Of a stretch of 64,000 nt of DNA, positions 57,995 to 61,642 are shown piece by piece (position 1 is the first letter of the stretch; each line of letters opens with the position of its first letter). The notes below the pieces were generated by a model that was not told the origin of the DNA, searched no databases, and saw only the letters and a program-made list of their open reading frames with translations. This stretch comes from Pseudomonadota bacterium (GTDB taxonomy: Bacteria > Bdellovibrionota_F > JAHFAK01 > JBDREC01). The translations under genes were made by a program, and so were the position numbers. The DNA lies in the NCBI GenBank assembly GCA_043820105.1, contig JBDREC010000046.1, positions 8,687 to 72,686 of the forward strand, written 5' to 3'.

Positions 57995-60900
57995 TTACCA
58001 AGATATTTGGGAAACAAATTTTCCAAGTGGACCATCATCAACGATATTTATAATACCTCTGTTTAATTCCAATACTAGGCTAGGCAAGCCTTTTGTATGA
58101 TCTAAGTCTGGTTGACTTGGTCCTCCATAGCCATCTGGGTGAGAGTGAAAACTTAATGTGCCGCTTTGACTTTGTGATTTTGACCTTAAGCTGCCAAAAT
58201 ATTTTTTATCAACACCAGAATCAGCATATAAATATCTTAATGGGTCTAAACCGTTTGCTCCTGATAAATTTGAGCTAGTCTGAAGATAAAATTCCCCTCC
58301 ACTGGGTAAGTATGCAGGAGAACCAGCAACAGAGGATTCTGGAATAAAATCATCAATAATGATTTTTCCGTTTTGCTTTTTAAATGTAAATGAACCATGT
58401 ATTTCAAGTGTATTATTTTGTCCTACCTGTTCTACCCATTCTCTTGCTTTTTTTAAGGCTCTTTCATCAACTTGGATTTTTGTTCCATTTCTGGTTTTAT
58501 GTGTAATGTATCTAGGTCTGCTTCTGGCTGGGTTTCTTGAGTTGAACTGTAGGTCAAAGTTTTTTGCATCTTCTGGTGTAGCTGCCATTACTCTCCATTT
58601 TTCAGATGGATCACCAATTGTTCTTCGGAGGGAAGATAAGATCTCATCAGTCTGATTTAATTTTGAAGTTAAAGTTGCAACTGCTCTCTCATCTGGAACC
58701 CCTTGTACCAGTTTTTCAAGTAATCTTTTGCCTTCAGGAGATAACTGGGCCCAAACTCTTTCATATCTAGCCCTTAAAGCAGGTGATGAGCTTGCTAAAA
58801 GTTCCTCGTAACATTCATTTATTGTTCTGTTATTTGTTGCCATTCTAATAGGCATATCATCTCCTGAAGAACTTGCCCTTTTGGTTGATGATGTTTTCGG
58901 CGAAGTTCTTCTAGGGGTGGTTGGTCTTGCTCTGGATGAAGTTGCTACAGGCCTTGCTCTTCTTGAACTTAGGATATCATTCATTGTGTCTACATTTAAT
59001 TGCATATCATTCAATGCCCTTGTAAGCTCTTTTTTTCTGCCGCTTTGATACCATTTTAAATTATTTATTTGTTCTTTGATTTCCTCTACTCTTTTTTTGC
59101 CCATCTCTACTAATTGCTTTATTGTGCCACTATTTTCTTCTCTCATTTGTTGAATTATCCTGGTTCGTTGAACAGCATTTGGATGTATGGTTGTAGTGGC
59201 TGTTTTTCCAGCAAGACCCCTTCTCATTAAATCCTTTGCTTCATCTTCAGAAAATCCACCACGTCTTAATATATTATACTTTTCCTGTAATACTTCATCT
59301 GTATACCTAAAAACAGATCCATCACCATGATTGTGTGCTCTTAGGAGTGCTTGAGATTGAGTCTCTGTTAATGTGTTTTTTCCCGTTGCCCTTGCTGCTG
59401 CTGATACTCTCGCAGCATCATCAAGGCCTGCATTATCCATAACTTGCGCTACAGGATATTTGCTTCTCGCCATTCTTGCGGCTGCTCTTGCTTCCAGGTC
59501 TTGTGCTGCTTGAGATGCACTTGTTCTTGCTACAGTAGAAGCACCTGCTCTACCTGTTGCAGCTTGTGCTCCATCACTTGAGACTTGTCCAGCTATTCTA
59601 GCGGATGAAGTTCTGGCTGTACCCTTTGCAACTGCAGTTCCCGCATCAGCTGATGGGTTTTTAAAGAAAGCAAGCATTGCTTTAAAGGTGCTTTCAGCTT
59701 CTGTTATATCTACATTTAATTTTTTTATTTGTCCTTTCCATGCTGTGAGGATTTCATCCATATTGCTATCTACATTTAATTTATTTAAAAAGGTGCCAAT
59801 AAGCTCAATTGCTTCTTTTGGGATTCTTCCATTTGACACTTGTTTTCTTAAAAAATCTAGCATTGCATCAGAGCCTTTTGAAACCATCAATTTCGCCATT
59901 TGTTTTATTATGTCATCTGGGATTAATCTTCTGGCTACAGCTCCAGCTCCACCAGTTGCTCCGTTAAAGATAAGGGATAGTATTCCACCAATAACAGCTG
60001 CTTGCTGATGTTCTTCCATTCTAACTCTCATTTCTTCAATGTGCTCATCACTGTGAAGATGACTTTTTTCAAGAGCTTCTTCATAATCTTCTTTTGCATC
60101 AAAATAGGGCTCTGATATTAAAACCATGTCAACGCCAAATCCAACAGCTGCAGTTGCTACCCAGCTTGTTCCAAAAGATGCAACTACTACTGCTTCAAGG
60201 GCTATTGTAGCTCCAATTCCAATTGCCATATCTCTTGCCATTAGACCCATCTCATCGATGTTATCTACTTTATCTAAAACTATACAAAACTTAGCAGCTT
60301 CTGCTATTGGGTTTTGGCCTGAGCCATTAAATCCTGCTACATGTTCTTTTAATAAGTCAGAAGACATGTATGGAATAAACTGATTTGGGCTTTTGGGATC
60401 AAGATTTGCTATTTCATTAAAATATTGCATGTGATCTCCTGTTCCACGTTGAGATTCACTTGCTATTGGAGCATTTATTGCGAAATCAGTATGATTTTGA
60501 AGTCCAAGTTCATTTAATTTTCCTTGTGCTTTTTGCCTTTGTTCTTGATCCATGTATCTCCATTGATTTTTCAAGATTGTTTGCCTAAAGTTTGTCATTG
60601 TGTCTATTTTTTGCTGCCTTTTTAATGAGTCCATGTGACCATCAATATATTCAGTATCACCCCACCCTGCACCTTCATTTCTTGCTACAAGTCCTGGGAT
60701 CCCAGTGTCAAGAGCATAACCTGACAAGTCTACAGCCTTGGTCATTCCTGCTTCTGTGAATTTTCTCAAAGTGCCCTTATCCTCAAACATTTGATAGCCA
60801 TAACTTTCATATTGCTTTTTAATTGCATCAGATTCGCACATTGCACGAAATCTAACAGCATCAGGTGTGCCTTCTGGTAATGCTTCGGCTAAATCAACTT

Positions 60901-61642
60901 GAATGGCTCTTACTGAAGAATCTTTACAACCTGTTCTTCTTGGAGTTTTATCTGATAAAGCATCCAGGGCTACTGTTGTTTGCCTTCTTGCTTCAGATGT
61001 TGATTTTCTCATTACTTGTTCCGGACTGTTTAAAGAATTTAATTGTGGTGTACACCAACTTGAACTTGAACAATCAAAATCATAATAAACAAGTTCTCCA
61101 CCATTTTCATCTGTTGTTGTATGTCTTTGCATTGGCGGCAGTTCGCCTAAATCATCTTCCATATCATCTACTAAGTCTTCAAGTTCATTCATTACATCTC
61201 TATATTCATCATATTCTTTATTTAAATCAGCTTTTGAGTCAGCGCATAAGTGCCTGAGAGATGGATCTTCTTTGCAATACTTTCTTTGATTTCTTAAATA
61301 TTCATCTGTTTCTTTTAGGGCAATTTGTGCAATAAGTGCCTGACATGCTTTTGGAATAAATGAATAAGGAACATTATGAGTTTTTTGTGATTCATAATAA
61401 ACACCAGCTGCTCCAAATAAAGCAGCTTTTCCCCATCTTAAAGCAGCATCTGACATTCCATAACCATGAACCATTTTTTCAACTTCATTGAGATTCCACT
61501 TGGGATTGCCTTTGCCGTCTGTTAATGTAAAAGGAGCTCTCCATCTGTTGTAATCTGTGCATTGTTCATTGCCAAGTGCTAGATTTGTAAGTGAAAAAAT
61601 GAAGATAAATTGAAAAATTATATAAATCCTTTTTGAATACAT
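57995..61642 (-). CDS. Very large secreted/membrane-associated protein with a C-terminal RadC-like JAB/MPN+ metalloprotease motif
   Basis: 1215 aa. It has a signal peptide, two central hydrophobic helices, Ala/Arg/Ser/Thr low-complexity and coiled-coil regions, and a C-terminal FHSHPDGYGGPSQPD, which is an exact HxHx7Sx2D match. Confidence 0.6.
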   Translation of the reverse strand: MYSKRIYIIFQFIFIFSLTNLALGNEQCTDYNRWRAPFTLTDGKGNPKWNLNEVEKMVHGYGMSDAALRWGKAALFGAAGVYYESQKTHNVPYSFIPKACQALIAQIALKETDEYLRNQRKYCKEDPSLRHLCADSKADLNKEYDEYRDVMNELEDLVDDMEDDLGELPPMQRHTTTDENGGELVYYDFDCSSSSWCTPQLNSLNSPEQVMRKSTSEARRQTTVALDALSDKTPRRTGCKDSSVRAIQVDLAEALPEGTPDAVRFRAMCESDAIKKQYESYGYQMFEDKGTLRKFTEAGMTKAVDLSGYALDTGIPGLVARNEGAGWGDTEYIDGHMDSLKRQQKIDTMTNFRQTILKNQWRYMDQEQRQKAQGKLNELGLQNHTDFAINAPIASESQRGTGDHMQYFNEIANLDPKSPNQFIPYMSSDLLKEHVAGFNGSGQNPIAEAAKFCIVLDKVDNIDEMGLMARDMAIGIGATIALEAVVVASFGTSWVATAAVGFGVDMVLISEPYFDAKEDYEEALEKSHLHSDEHIEEMRVRMEEHQQAAVIGGILSLIFNGATGGAGAVARRLIPDDIIKQMAKLMVSKGSDAMLDFLRKQVSNGRIPKEAIELIGTFLNKLNVDSNMDEILTAWKGQIKKLNVDITEAESTFKAMLAFFKNPSADAGTAVAKGTARTSSARIAGQVSSDGAQAATGRAGASTVARTSASQAAQDLEARAAARMARSKYPVAQVMDNAGLDDAARVSAAARATGKNTLTETQSQALLRAHNHGDGSVFRYTDEVLQEKYNILRRGGFSEDEAKDLMRRGLAGKTATTTIHPNAVQRTRIIQQMREENSGTIKQLVEMGKKRVEEIKEQINNLKWYQSGRKKELTRALNDMQLNVDTMNDILSSRRARPVATSSRARPTTPRRTSPKTSSTKRASSSGDDMPIRMATNNRTINECYEELLASSSPALRARYERVWAQLSPEGKRLLEKLVQGVPDERAVATLTSKLNQTDEILSSLRRTIGDPSEKWRVMAATPEDAKNFDLQFNSRNPARSRPRYITHKTRNGTKIQVDERALKKAREWVEQVGQNNTLEIHGSFTFKKQNGKIIIDDFIPESSVAGSPAYLPSGGEFYLQTSSNLSGANGLDPLRYLYADSGVDKKYFGSLRSKSQSQSGTLSFHSHPDGYGGPSQPDLDHTKGLPSLVLELNRGIINIVDDGPLGKFVSQISW

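Follow-up and report, generated by a model that had tools for sequence, protein, structure and literature searches.

A gene at positions 57995..61642 of the minus strand of the window, the 64,000-nucleotide stretch of DNA analysed here, can be read as encoding a modular effector or toxin, a single chain exported by Sec, whose exchangeable tail ends in a divergent, catalytically complete JAB/MPN+ zinc metallopeptidase. We assign this reading a probability of roughly 0.55. The scaffold would comprise aa 1-816, where a signal peptide is followed by a Cys-rich domain of the disulfide type, a marginal helix pair and a helical mid-domain, and the tail (aa 817-1215) would consist of linkers followed by a JAB/MPN+ domain that carries Glu1080, His1166, His1168, Ser1176 and Asp1179. 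Our verdict is that the C-terminal domain represents a new, unannotated JAB clade, which a new scaffold carries as its effector or toxin warhead.

The coding sequence specifies 1215 aa plus a stop codon and begins with ATG, 6 nt upstream of which a Shine-Dalgarno sequence, GAGGA (61649..61653, minus strand), can be read directly. Its product corresponds to the NCBI MAG protein ABIA04_07515, a 'hypothetical protein' of an uncultured Pseudomonadota bacterium. The gene is monocistronic and lies among chromosomal housekeeping genes. A convergent gene for a 3-oxo-5-alpha-steroid-dehydrogenase-like membrane protein ends 14 bp from it on the downstream side, and a divergent gene for an OmpA-family (OmpA/Pal-like) lipoprotein lies upstream. 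The codon usage, which the preliminary description had proposed to compare with that of the genome, is typical for it (GC3 z-score of -0.4), and by this measure the gene is native. The same description had noted no immunity-like small gene downstream, and indeed no immunity or partner gene is found in the window or in the loci L001, L005, L007 and L009. Neither a secretion island nor dedicated secretion genes adjoin the gene, the protein contains no secretion-system marker domain, no Ubl, E1 or E2 genes lie near the locus, and no RHS, PAAR, VgrG or LXG domains were found.

A putatively exported scaffold with exchangeable tails

The first 24 residues (61571..61642, minus strand), MYSKRIYIIFQFIFIFSLTNLALG|NEQC at the junction with the mature protein, form a typical Sec signal with K/R in the n-region, an h-region and a predicted cleavage after ALG, and they have no lipobox; signal-like peptides also begin the homologs P0002 and P0008. 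The large N-terminal region described earlier is present as a Cys-rich domain of aa 25-464 (60251..61570, minus strand), which is common to P0002 and P0008 and has nine cysteines invariant in all three proteins. It matches no Pfam or NCBIfam family. This domain is probably oxidised and extracytoplasmic, and it may have a role in binding or targeting.

The central hydrophobic module of aa 465-575 (59918..60250, minus strand) contains two Gly/Ala-rich stretches (aa 471-510 and aa 548-570), and the conserved loop between them is acidic and rich in His (…EALEK.H…DEHIEEMR…). The two central hydrophobic helices of the preliminary description are thus recognisable as stretches, but their hydrophobicity is marginal: the Kyte-Doolittle maxima are 1.99 and 1.49, and the translocon-scale dG values are +2.4 and +4.0 kcal/mol, compared to about -5 for real TM helices encoded by neighbouring genes. 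In P0002 and P0008 the segments are not TM-grade, though their positions are conserved. Because of these dG values and the absence of TM-grade segments in the two homologs, the segments are predicted to be poor stop-transfer sequences. The marginal helices also include the conserved acidic residues E483 and D505, and segment 2 is followed by Arg-Arg. The module could be a conditional membrane-insertion or translocation element.

A helical linker with an Ala/Ser/Thr/Arg-rich low-complexity stretch (aa 576-730; 59453..59917, minus strand) leads to an uncharacterised helical 'mid-domain' of ~85 aa (aa 731-813; 59204..59452, minus strand), after which the variable tail starts with a helical stretch that may form a coiled coil and with a basic linker rich in Ser, Thr, Pro and Arg (aa 814-957; 58772..59203, minus strand). 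Coiled-coil-type matches in this part are weak. The low-complexity stretches are an Ala-rich region at aa 660-750 and a Ser/Thr/Arg/Pro-rich region at aa 890-930, in line with the Ala/Arg/Ser/Thr-rich segments reported previously. The mid-domain, with the consensus N..L.D..R…LG..LT..Q..A.L.AH..G…YT..EL..K..IL..AGFS..E…LMR.G.AG., occurs in 86 protein clusters that include Bdellovibrionota proteins, and the carriers with a named source come from Bdellovibrio sp. qaytius and a Bacteriovoracaceae bacterium. It had no match in Pfam and PDB profile searches, in which a resemblance to HhH was unsupported, and on this comparison it appears to be new to both databases.

The exchange of tails is most clearly seen in the closest homolog, P0002, which aligns with aa 28-816 only (34% identity, E 8e-146). 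The homology stops at aa 816, directly after the mid-domain, and past this point no similarity between the two proteins was detected; instead of a JAB domain, P0002 ends in an ADP-ribosyltransferase (ART PF01129, E 7.5e-17). A conserved N-terminus joined to unrelated C-terminal toxin domains, as in polymorphic toxins, is therefore found here in the form of JAB versus ART tails. Since P0002 shares the N-terminal ~790 aa and carries an ART, the effector-like reading that had been offered from the JAB motif gains independent support. Among mid-domain carriers, 72 tails fall into 53 clusters, versus 27 clusters for 64 heads, and the partner domains that can be recognised comprise Fic (4 proteins), ART and DnaJ. 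In marking the break of homology, the mid-domain resembles the domains that polymorphic toxins have at their pre-toxin boundary. We regard aa 1-816 as a new, rare delivery scaffold with an exchangeable C-terminal 'warhead'.

The same features have to be weighed against two other locations for the protein. It could be a resident of the producer's own inner membrane, with the Cys-rich domain as a periplasmic sensor, the central segments as anchors that form a hairpin and a single pass, and both the mid-domain and the JAB domain in the cytoplasm as a regulatory or quality-control peptidase. We consider this unlikely, yet it deserves the most attention among the alternatives. The Kyte-Doolittle maximum of segment 1, together with the acidic inter-segment loop and the Arg-Arg after segment 2, fits the positive-inside rule and an inner-membrane topology with a cytoplasmic C-terminus, which counts against delivery; in 39 of the 61 long mid-domain carriers hydrophobic segments precede the mid-domain, and they never follow it. 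In addition, the prokaryotic JAB peptidases whose biochemistry has been characterised are all intracellular and act in the cytoplasm (PMC3482391), and two small relatives of the C-terminal domain appear cytoplasmic, namely P0061 and P0050, the latter a JAB-like domain with FHA encoded beside a Ser/Thr kinase. Against this, the segments are marginal and fall below TM grade in P0002 and P0008, and the JAB/ART swap and the hyper-variable tails (Fic, ART) are typical of toxins and effectors, not of housekeeping receptors.

An envelope peptidase of the periplasm or cell exterior, which might for instance act on the stems of peptidoglycan, on its links to lipoproteins, or on surface proteins belonging to the producer or its prey, is less probable again. 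It would agree with the signal peptide and the exported Cys-rich domain, with the requirement of a JAB domain for Zn only and for no cytosolic cofactor, and with the OmpA/Pal-like lipoprotein gene upstream. Phage tail-tip proteins offer a precedent, combining MPN domains with cell-wall hydrolase domains, and there is a weak match to a PHROG tail protein (E 0.23). However, the ART of P0002 and the Fic domains of other carriers need NAD+ or ATP and must therefore act in a cytoplasm, no cell-wall-binding or hydrolase domain was detected, and the viral fold search gave no relevant match.

The probable C-terminal JAB/MPN+ module

The preliminary description pointed to an exact HxHx7Sx2D match at the C-terminus, and FHSHPDGYGGPSQPD does fit this pattern with H1166, H1168, S1176 and D1179 (H1166-S-H1168-x7-S1176-x2-D1179; 58106..58147, minus strand), the predicted metal-binding motif. 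The pattern is insufficient by itself: it arises in 25 of 20000 shuffles of the protein (0.13%), and a second exact match, HIHESASITKSWKD, belongs to an unrelated metallophosphoesterase (54751..55623) in the same window. For these two reasons the motif on its own is weak evidence for a JAB domain.

Stronger evidence comes from conservation. An exhaustive HMMER search of 1.84 billion proteins identified five distant homologs, with 25-33% identity to the C-terminal ~200-260 aa: P0013 (E 8.9e-9), P0048, P0050, P0061 and P0076 (E 3e-4). Only 15 columns are invariant in the six-member alignment, and these include E-x-x-G-x-F, F-x-P, HSH and PS-x-x-D. The complete JAMM signature (Glu1080-x-x-Gly, His1166-Ser-His1168, Ser1176 and Asp1179) is thus kept in 6/6 proteins, as is the Pro of the motif. 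The upstream catalytic Glu that was to be located is Glu1080, the predicted general base, whose codon lies at 58403..58405 (minus strand) and which is likewise invariant in all six. The predicted core occupies aa 1053-1215 (57998..58486, minus strand). In it, beta1 and alpha1 (K1065, W1069) are followed by the strand of the Glu (E1080-x-x-G1083-x-F1085) and that of F1099-x-P1101; after a variable insert of ~55 aa come the strand with HSH, the helix with PSxxD and, at the end, two more strands. This core is preceded by a helical N-terminal extension (aa 958-1052; 58487..58771, minus strand) that is common to P0013, P0048, P0050, P0061 and P0076 and includes a conserved 'W.R.aATPedA..F' helix.

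Profile and fold comparisons point in the same direction at low scores. Prok-JAB is the best Pfam match but remains sub-threshold (E 0.13 for the whole protein and 0.013 for the domain); it reaches E 0.0026-0.0044 with P0061, and its matches always lie on the motif block. Its 12.6-17.3 bits stay below the cut-off of 25, and no curated JAB model (PF14464, PF01398 or similar) attains its threshold. With hhalign, a Prok-JAB profile seeded on the verified AfJAMM gave a score of 33.9 (P 1e-4, probability 56%), ~8.6 SD above a column-shuffle null of 12.3 +/- 2.5 (maximum 21.3), in a match that spans 22 columns only. In an alignment to verified Rpn11 and CSN5, the Glu, Gly, Pro and HSH positions each fall on their counterparts. 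Two AF2 models, built from 6-sequence alignments (pTM 0.61 and 0.63, pLDDT about 58-59), both predict the MPN element order, beta-alpha-beta-beta…beta-alpha-beta-beta. For each model, MPN/JAMM chains such as CSN5, Rpn11, AMSH and Cap3 are the majority among the top 50 PDB matches of Foldseek, an enrichment that the shared motif may inflate because Foldseek scores amino-acid identity plus structure; no match has E < 0.04, and the TM-scores are 0.2-0.45. The C-terminal ~200 aa are thus very likely a divergent JAB/MPN+ zinc peptidase, as predicted from sequence and models whose curated-model and fold scores lie below significance. Neither of the two results that the preliminary description named as overturning it, a predicted fold lacking an MPN/JAB domain or a motif that varies among homologs, was obtained. 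The term 'RadC-like', as used in the preliminary description, does not hold in the strict sense, since Pfam scans with protein and domain sequences gave no RadC match at E up to 10 and the nearest relatives are of the Prok-JAB, CSN5 and Cap3 types.

A further alternative accepts a delivered toxin and takes its JAB domain to be a nuclease or another non-peptidase hydrolase, as has been proposed for the RadC and Tox-JAB clades. Zhang et al. 2012 (Aravind's group) argued that divergent toxin JABs without the Ubl-tail tunnel residues may be nucleases (PMC3482391), and the present family, with its sub-threshold Pfam scores, is as far from Ubl peptidases as those clades. Nonetheless, nuclease activity of any JAB domain is still a hypothesis (PMC3482391). 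The RadC model is unmatched, and so are the DUF4329 and Toxin-JAB1 models at E up to 10 with the protein and six domain sequences, a search whose HMMER filters may have concealed very weak matches; by structure and by profile, the nearest neighbours are the isopeptidases CSN5, Rpn11, AMSH, BRCC36, Cap3 and AfJAMM. We regard a non-peptidase activity as improbable. A chance or convergent JAMM-like motif in a domain that is not an MPN-fold enzyme is very improbable: every curated-model and fold-search score is below significance, confidence in the models is low to moderate and the same regular expression matches an unrelated protein of the window by chance, but six proteins at 25-33% identity keep five catalytic positions and the G, F and P landmarks without change, the secondary-structure order is that of MPN, the profile similarity stands far above its shuffle null, and two independent models retrieve the same superfamily.

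Relation to known systems and proposed mode of action

The E…H-S/x-H…S-x-x-D signature is shared with prokaryotic JAB proteins (PF14464; AfJAMM 1OI0/1R5X; CBASS Cap3) and with eukaryotic Rpn11, CSN5, AMSH and BRCC36. JAB/JAMM peptidases, which rank first among the neighbours by Pfam, hhalign and Foldseek and have the same predicted element order, also possess the E-x-x-G-x-hydrophobic Glu strand and the Phi-Pro strand, and the variable insert is located where eukaryotic JAMM enzymes have Ins-1. The present domain differs from known JABs in its sub-threshold scores, its conserved ~95-aa helical N-terminal extension and its long Glu-to-HSH spacing of 86 aa. Moreover, it ends a signal-peptide-bearing protein of 1215 aa, whereas known prokaryotic JABs are small and cytoplasmic and are encoded in Ubl, CBASS or cofactor operons. 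RadC (YicR) belongs to the same superfamily and has an HxHx7Sx2D-type motif, but the query reads HSHPDG rather than HNHPSG, and no N-terminal HhH module was detected.

Tox-JAB-1 and Tox-JAB-2 (DUF4329) likewise employ JAB as an exchangeable C-terminal toxin module of a large secreted protein (PMC3482391), and the Tox-JAB-2 pattern 'E, H[ST]H, S, D' is the same as that of the query. In contrast to them, the query matches no Tox-JAB Pfam model, its best neighbours are peptidase-type JABs, and its carrier is a new scaffold with a Sec signal only, instead of RHS, T6SS or T7SS proteins; downstream, no Imm65 or Imm-NTF2-like (Imm-NTF2-2) immunity gene is found in the position occupied by the convergent steroid-dehydrogenase-like gene. 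Polymorphic toxins in general (Rhs, CdiA; VENN, PT-TG, DPxGL) also combine a conserved N-terminal delivery part with unrelated enzymatic C-termini, comparable to JAB in the query, ART in P0002 and Fic in other carriers. They differ from the query, which has neither an immunity gene nor orphan toxin cassettes downstream and in which no known trafficking or releasing-peptidase domain was detected. The phage tail-tip alternative, also raised initially, finds no support when the query is compared with MPN proteins of the lambda gpK type, which join MPN to NlpC/P60 and are encoded among tail genes: there is no NlpC/P60 match and no phage context, the codon usage is native, the viral fold search returned nothing significant, and PHROG tail-protein matches are weak (E 0.22 or higher).

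CNF1, DNT, PMT and the diphtheria T domain represent AB toxins made of a single chain, in which hydrophobic helices for translocation lie in the centre. The query has the same order, from an N-terminal binding-type domain through two hydrophobic helices with an acidic loop to a C-terminal catalytic domain; the likeness is one of architecture only. Neither sequence nor fold similarity to these toxins was found, and the Pfam families of CNF1-, PMT- and diphtheria-type toxins have no match in the query. By analogy, the marginal helices with E483 and D505 beside the His-rich loop could be pH-triggered. In the proposed sequence of events, the protein would leave the cytoplasm via Sec, its N-terminal domain would be oxidised in the periplasm, and it would then reach a target cell, which could be a bacterium, as prey or competitor, or a eukaryotic host. 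As in toxins of the CNF1, PMT and diphtheria types, the central helices may help to bring the C-terminal part into or through the membrane of the target. The JAB domain would hydrolyse an (iso)peptide bond there, and the most plausible substrate is the C-terminal tail of a protein that is ubiquitin-like or is conjugated in a similar way. The absence of an immunity gene is suggestive of a non-kin target.

A broader proposal, for which we hold only a rather low expectation, is that the protein is the founding example of a family of Sec-exported, self-translocating effectors of predatory or otherwise uncultured bacteria, a family that is defined by the mid-domain and of which this member delivers a JAMM metallo-isopeptidase into another cell. 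To our knowledge, the known bacterial effector deubiquitinases are cysteine proteases. If the proposed activity is true, the protein would be the first bacterial deubiquitinase or de-Ubl-ylase effector of the metalloprotease class; another possibility is a weapon that removes ubiquitin-like conjugates from the defence systems of prey.

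Gene and genomic setting

The open reading frame at positions 57995-61642 of the reverse strand is intact and encodes a protein of 1215 aa (P0001) from an ATG start codon, with a GAGGA ribosome-binding site 6 nt to the 5' side; the NCBI MAG entry 'hypothetical protein ABIA04_07515 [Pseudomonadota bacterium]' is identical to it. Features listed in the preliminary description are present, namely a Sec-type signal peptide (aa 1-24), a large N-terminal region, hydrophobic stretches (aa 471-510 and 548-570), low-complexity stretches that are Ala-rich (aa 660-750) or basic and Ser/Thr/Pro/Arg-rich (aa 890-930), and a C-terminal sequence, FHSHPDGYGGPSQPD, that fits the motif HxHx7Sx2D. 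The gene stands alone as a monocistronic unit. The convergent gene, 3-oxo-5-alpha-steroid 4-dehydrogenase-like, ends 14 bp away from it, and on the upstream side lies a divergent gene for an OmpA-family lipoprotein. The earlier remark that no small immunity-like gene lies beside it is confirmed.

The remainder of the window is ordinary diderm chromosomal DNA, with genes for BamA, UvrA, GlnRS, PFK, sigma-54 activators, two-component systems, a TRAP transporter, and a T2SS-F/PilC-like protein; scans of the window revealed no tRNA genes and no Rfam families. Two consecutive genes with a 4-nt overlap, at 49797-51566 (+) and 51563-54748 (+), both encode PPDK_N (PEP-utilising, ATP-grasp) proteins, and the product of the second (1061 aa) is a fusion of PPDK_N with a C-terminal nucleotidyltransferase (NTP_transf_2/Pol-beta-like), which is an unusual combination. 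The 93-aa protein encoded at 55797-56078 (-) begins with a double zinc-ribbon and ends in a strong TM helix (dG about -4.6). The gene pair at 56191-57225 (+) and 57222-57980 (+), also with a 4-nt overlap, makes up a bacterial reductase pair of the sterol or polyprenol type, one product being NAD-dependent epimerase/3-beta-hydroxysteroid-dehydrogenase-like and the other a membrane 3-oxo-5-alpha-steroid 4-dehydrogenase (steroid 5-alpha-reductase-like).

The GC content of the gene is 0.376, whereas the other genes of the window average 0.331. The excess is confined to the first two codon positions and stems from the Ala/Arg/Gly content of the protein. The GC3 (0.214, against 0.225 ± 0.028 for the other genes) and the typical codon usage are native to the genome, and recent horizontal transfer, of which there is no sign, is rejected. 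For BamA from the window, pattern-matched relatives (Desulfatibacillum and Nitrospinales MAGs) are only 29-33% identical, which places the source no more closely than as a diderm, delta-proteobacteria-like bacterium of a poorly sampled lineage.

The C-terminal domain

The exact match to the JAMM motif, put forward in the preliminary description as evidence for a metalloprotease, is real, but the motif alone is barely more than chance. The strict regular expression was found in 25 of 20000 shuffles of the protein, and a second exact match in the window, HIHESASITKSWKD, lies within a calcineurin-like metallophosphoesterase (54751-55623, -), an unrelated protein in which it is a chance match and a warning that the expression is not specific. 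In Pfam, the whole protein gave only a sub-threshold Prok-JAB match (aa 1164-1190, E 0.13, 12.6 bits against a cut-off of 25 bits). Prok-JAB was also the top family for the isolated domain (E 0.013) and for the homolog P0061 (E 0.0026-0.0044), with matches that covered the motif block and stayed below threshold every time. NCBIfam, PADLOC, and PHROGs gave no useful match, and PDB sequence searches with the protein and with A1, a profile of six C-terminal regions, returned nothing significant; the JAB protein 2KKS was aligned to the motif by A1 at E=1. No model match was obtained for RadC, Tox-JAB-1, or Tox-JAB-2, and the label RadC-like is not supported in the strict sense. A phage tail-tip-like module, which had also been proposed, is rejected, as the viral fold search was likewise empty.

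A word-indexed homology search with the full protein and the C-terminal profile found nothing beyond P0001 itself and P0061; such a method does not suit a family this sparse and divergent. An exhaustive HMMER search with aa 16-1215 against 1.84 billion representatives returned 93 proteins in three separate groups. The C-terminal group comprises five proteins that match the C-terminal ~200-260 aa: P0013 (E 8.9e-9), P0048, P0050, P0061, and P0076 (E 2.9e-4). The six aligned regions, with 25-33% identity to the query, share 15 invariant columns: K1065 and W1069 on a helix; E1080, G1083, and F1085 (E-x-x-G-x-F); F1099 and P1101; Y1119 and P1134; and H1166, S1167, H1168, P1175, S1176, and D1179. 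These include the complete JAMM/MPN+ catalytic set (E1080, H1166, H1168, S1176, and D1179, invariant in 6/6). The motif is therefore conserved in homologs, and the predicted upstream catalytic Glu has been located, Glu1080 occupying the 'E-x-x-G-x-L' strand position of JAB proteins.

The AfJAMM sequence was verified against 1OI0/1R5X, and 49 PF14464 relatives were collected into a Prok-JAB reference profile, A2. Alignment of A1 with A2 by hhalign gave P 1.1e-4 and a probability of 56% over 22 columns only, with a score of 33.9 compared to 12.3 ± 2.5 (maximum 21.3, n=60) for column-shuffled A1. Against Rpn11 and CSN5, whose reference sequences were both verified against PDB, the N-terminal half of A1 was in register (alpha1 Lys, Glu on Glu, Gly on Gly, and Pro on Pro) and relaxed settings placed HSH on HSH as well, at a score that was not significant (16 versus a null of 10.9 ± 2.4). 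The program was informative in local and relaxed modes only, the global mode (-glob) being defeated by a variable insert.

The fold prediction returned the MPN element order in two AlphaFold2 models, but at moderate confidence. The model of the P0001 domain, built from the 6-sequence alignment (pLDDT 57.8, pTM 0.61), has a core pLDDT of 70-86 and a disordered insert of ~55 aa between the F-x-P strand and the HSH strand; P0050, which has the shortest insert in the family, gave a similar model (pTM 0.63). Both show beta, alpha, beta (after Glu), beta … beta (ending in HSH), alpha (S-x-x-D), beta, beta, and AfJAMM has the same element order. Collectively, these tests make it highly probable, short of formal proof, that the C-terminal domain is JAB/MPN+.

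This JAB clade is known from six clusters, and the module is also found on other scaffolds. P0061 is a standalone module, P0048 combines it with a signal peptide and hydrophobic segments, and P0050 (155-1177 in contig locus L007) is a small member fused to FHA. The gene of P0050 is convergent with a Ser/Thr protein kinase gene (Pkinase plus PEGA, 1187-2692), which suggests that some clade members act in intracellular phospho-signalling. P0013 (8001-12176 in locus L001; 1391 aa) has a weak sub-threshold TPR match, and the other large carriers, P0013 and the P0076 cluster, contain central Gly/Ala-rich hydrophobic stretches as well. P0104, a member of the P0076 cluster, is annotated transglutaminase-like, and a Cys/His/Asp papain- or transglutaminase-like stretch is visible by eye N-terminal to the JAB domain of P0013; these may be multi-warhead proteins. 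No immunity gene, Ubl/E1/E2 system, or secretion island was found around P0001 or at the homolog loci examined, and a Ubl/E1/E2 or CBASS association of the module was seen in none of these contexts.

Scaffold, exchangeable tails, and mid-domain

The search for the family of the N-terminal region led to two scaffold homologs, P0002 (1172 aa, E 3e-134) and P0008 (893 aa), which form the second HMMER group. Homology between P0001 and P0002 is confined to aa 28-816 (34% identity, E 8e-146); their tails are unrelated, that of P0002 being a bona fide R-S-E ADP-ribosyltransferase (ART; PF01129, E 7.5e-17; PF03496, E 4e-8). Since an ART stands at the same position, the JAB module holds a toxin/effector warhead position. 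The earlier proposal of a JAB/MPN+ domain on an exported, effector-like protein is thus supported by the tail swap together with the conserved catalytic set and the profile and fold tests. The scaffold is known from three or four proteins; a scan of GTDB representative genomes with the scaffold alignment yielded no relative, and a metagenome scan yielded the contig of P0008 and one fragment, nothing else. The P0008 gene (2597-5305 in locus L005, contig JACCDO010641630.1) has neighbours that differ from those of the P0001 gene (a response regulator, a RumA-like methyltransferase, and a radical-SAM protein), and by eye the GC content of this contig looks well above that of the ~32% GC window. 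Were this borne out, the scaffold family, rare as it is, would span distant lineages.

The homology between P0001 and P0002 breaks directly C-terminal to a helical mid-domain of ~85 aa (aa 731-813; 59204-59452, -), with the consensus N..L.D..R…LG..LT..Q..A.L.AH..G…YT..EL..K..IL..AGFS..E…LMR.G.AG in alignment A8. The third HMMER group, about 80 proteins, matches the short region aa ~705-820. The mid-domain has no Pfam family and no PDB sequence match, and occurs in one to three copies per protein in 86 clusters, with carriers of up to 3703 aa. Its assignment as (HhH)2, which would favour a RadC-like reading, was not supported, as the profile retrieved designed helical repeats of a generic kind from PDB and the members have no Pfam family in common. 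The tails of the carriers are hyper-variable (72 tails in 53 clusters) and the heads less so (64 in 27). Fic, ART, and JAB are recognisable among the tails, most of which are unknown folds, and the few recognisable partners overall, Fic (four proteins), ART, DnaJ, and KIF2A-N/Tudor/SH3-like, are of the effector type. Two carriers have organism names, Bdellovibrio sp. qaytius (AZZ37091.1) and a Bacteriovoracaceae bacterium (a Fic protein). Of the 61 carriers whose N-terminal part is long, 33 have a signal-like segment at the start and 39 have internal hydrophobic segments N-terminal to the mid-domain; none has them C-terminal to it. The mid-domain looks like a new boundary or pre-toxin-like domain.

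Export, alternatives, and implications

The best explanation of these data, to which we assign a probability of roughly 0.55, is that P0001 would be an exported modular effector or toxin whose JAMM metallopeptidase warhead would be aimed at non-kin cells. The N-terminal domain of the scaffold has nine invariant cysteines in all three members, a pattern characteristic of oxidised domains outside the cytoplasm. The central segments keep their positions in these proteins but are marginal in hydrophobicity, with Kyte-Doolittle maxima of 1.99 and 1.49 in P0001, 1.37 and 0.98 in P0002, and 1.25 and 1.36 in P0008; the translocon-scale dG values in P0001 are +2.4 and +4.0 kcal/mol, compared to about -5 for TM helices of neighbouring genes. 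Acidic residues lie within them (E483 in P0001; D505, invariant in the three members), and the loop between them (aa 516-542; 60017-60097, -; scaffold alignment A6) contains four His and is strongly acidic, its net charge being -9 across aa 511-547, with a core conserved in P0002 (…EALEK.H…DEHIEEMR…). This acidic loop and an Arg-Arg after segment 2 would fit a cytoplasmic C-terminus and a stable inner-membrane topology, as expected of a resident membrane protein. However, the marginal hydrophobicity and the acidic residues and loop favour full Sec export, and a resident membrane protein is unlikely. The loop is reminiscent of the pH-sensing loops of toxin translocation domains; CNF1, PMT, and diphtheria toxin possess translocation helices, and the analogy suggests a putative conditional membrane-insertion role for the central segments.

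The ART and Fic modules at the equivalent position need NAD+ or ATP, and the tail module is therefore meant for a cytoplasm, more plausibly that of a target cell than that of the producer, given the tail polymorphism. An envelope-acting peptidase, for which full export would also be suitable, is distinctly unlikely beside this cofactor requirement. JAB domains were predicted in 2012 as polymorphic-toxin modules, Tox-JAB-1 and Tox-JAB-2 (DUF4329), with RHS/T6SS/T7SS-type carriers, dedicated immunity proteins, and a suggested nuclease activity (PMC3482391). In a limited literature search, later papers only listed Tox-JABs as candidate T6SS effectors, and papers on bacterial DUBs mentioned JAMM only as a eukaryotic DUB class and named no bacterial JAMM effector. 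JAB toxin/effector warheads are known from comparative genomics only. P0001 resembles polymorphic toxins in its conserved carrier and exchangeable C-terminal enzyme but differs from Tox-JAB-1 and Tox-JAB-2 in having no match to their models, no immunity gene, and no known trafficking domain. In it, a new JAB clade whose closest kin are the peptidase-type JABs is joined to a Sec-dependent scaffold and a boundary domain that are both new. A nuclease-type JAB toxin, as suggested for the Tox-JABs, is improbable. That the domain is not JAB at all, as the sub-threshold Pfam matches might imply, is very improbable in view of the profile and fold tests.

As an exported effector or toxin, P0001 would carry a third toxin-type JAB clade, invisible to Pfam. 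With the catalytic residues all intact and isopeptidases as nearest neighbours, aa 958-1215 provide a clean construct for addressing secreted-JAB function. Moreover, the scaffold and the ~85-aa boundary domain delimit a large set of modular proteins that lack annotation (no fewer than 86 clusters, some members being from Bdellovibrionota), and the mid-domain proteins could be an unexplored effector arsenal without a recognised secretion-system tag or immunity gene. To our knowledge, the known bacterial effector DUBs are cysteine proteases; if the JAB domain is a delivered deubiquitinase-like enzyme, it would add a metalloprotease class to them.
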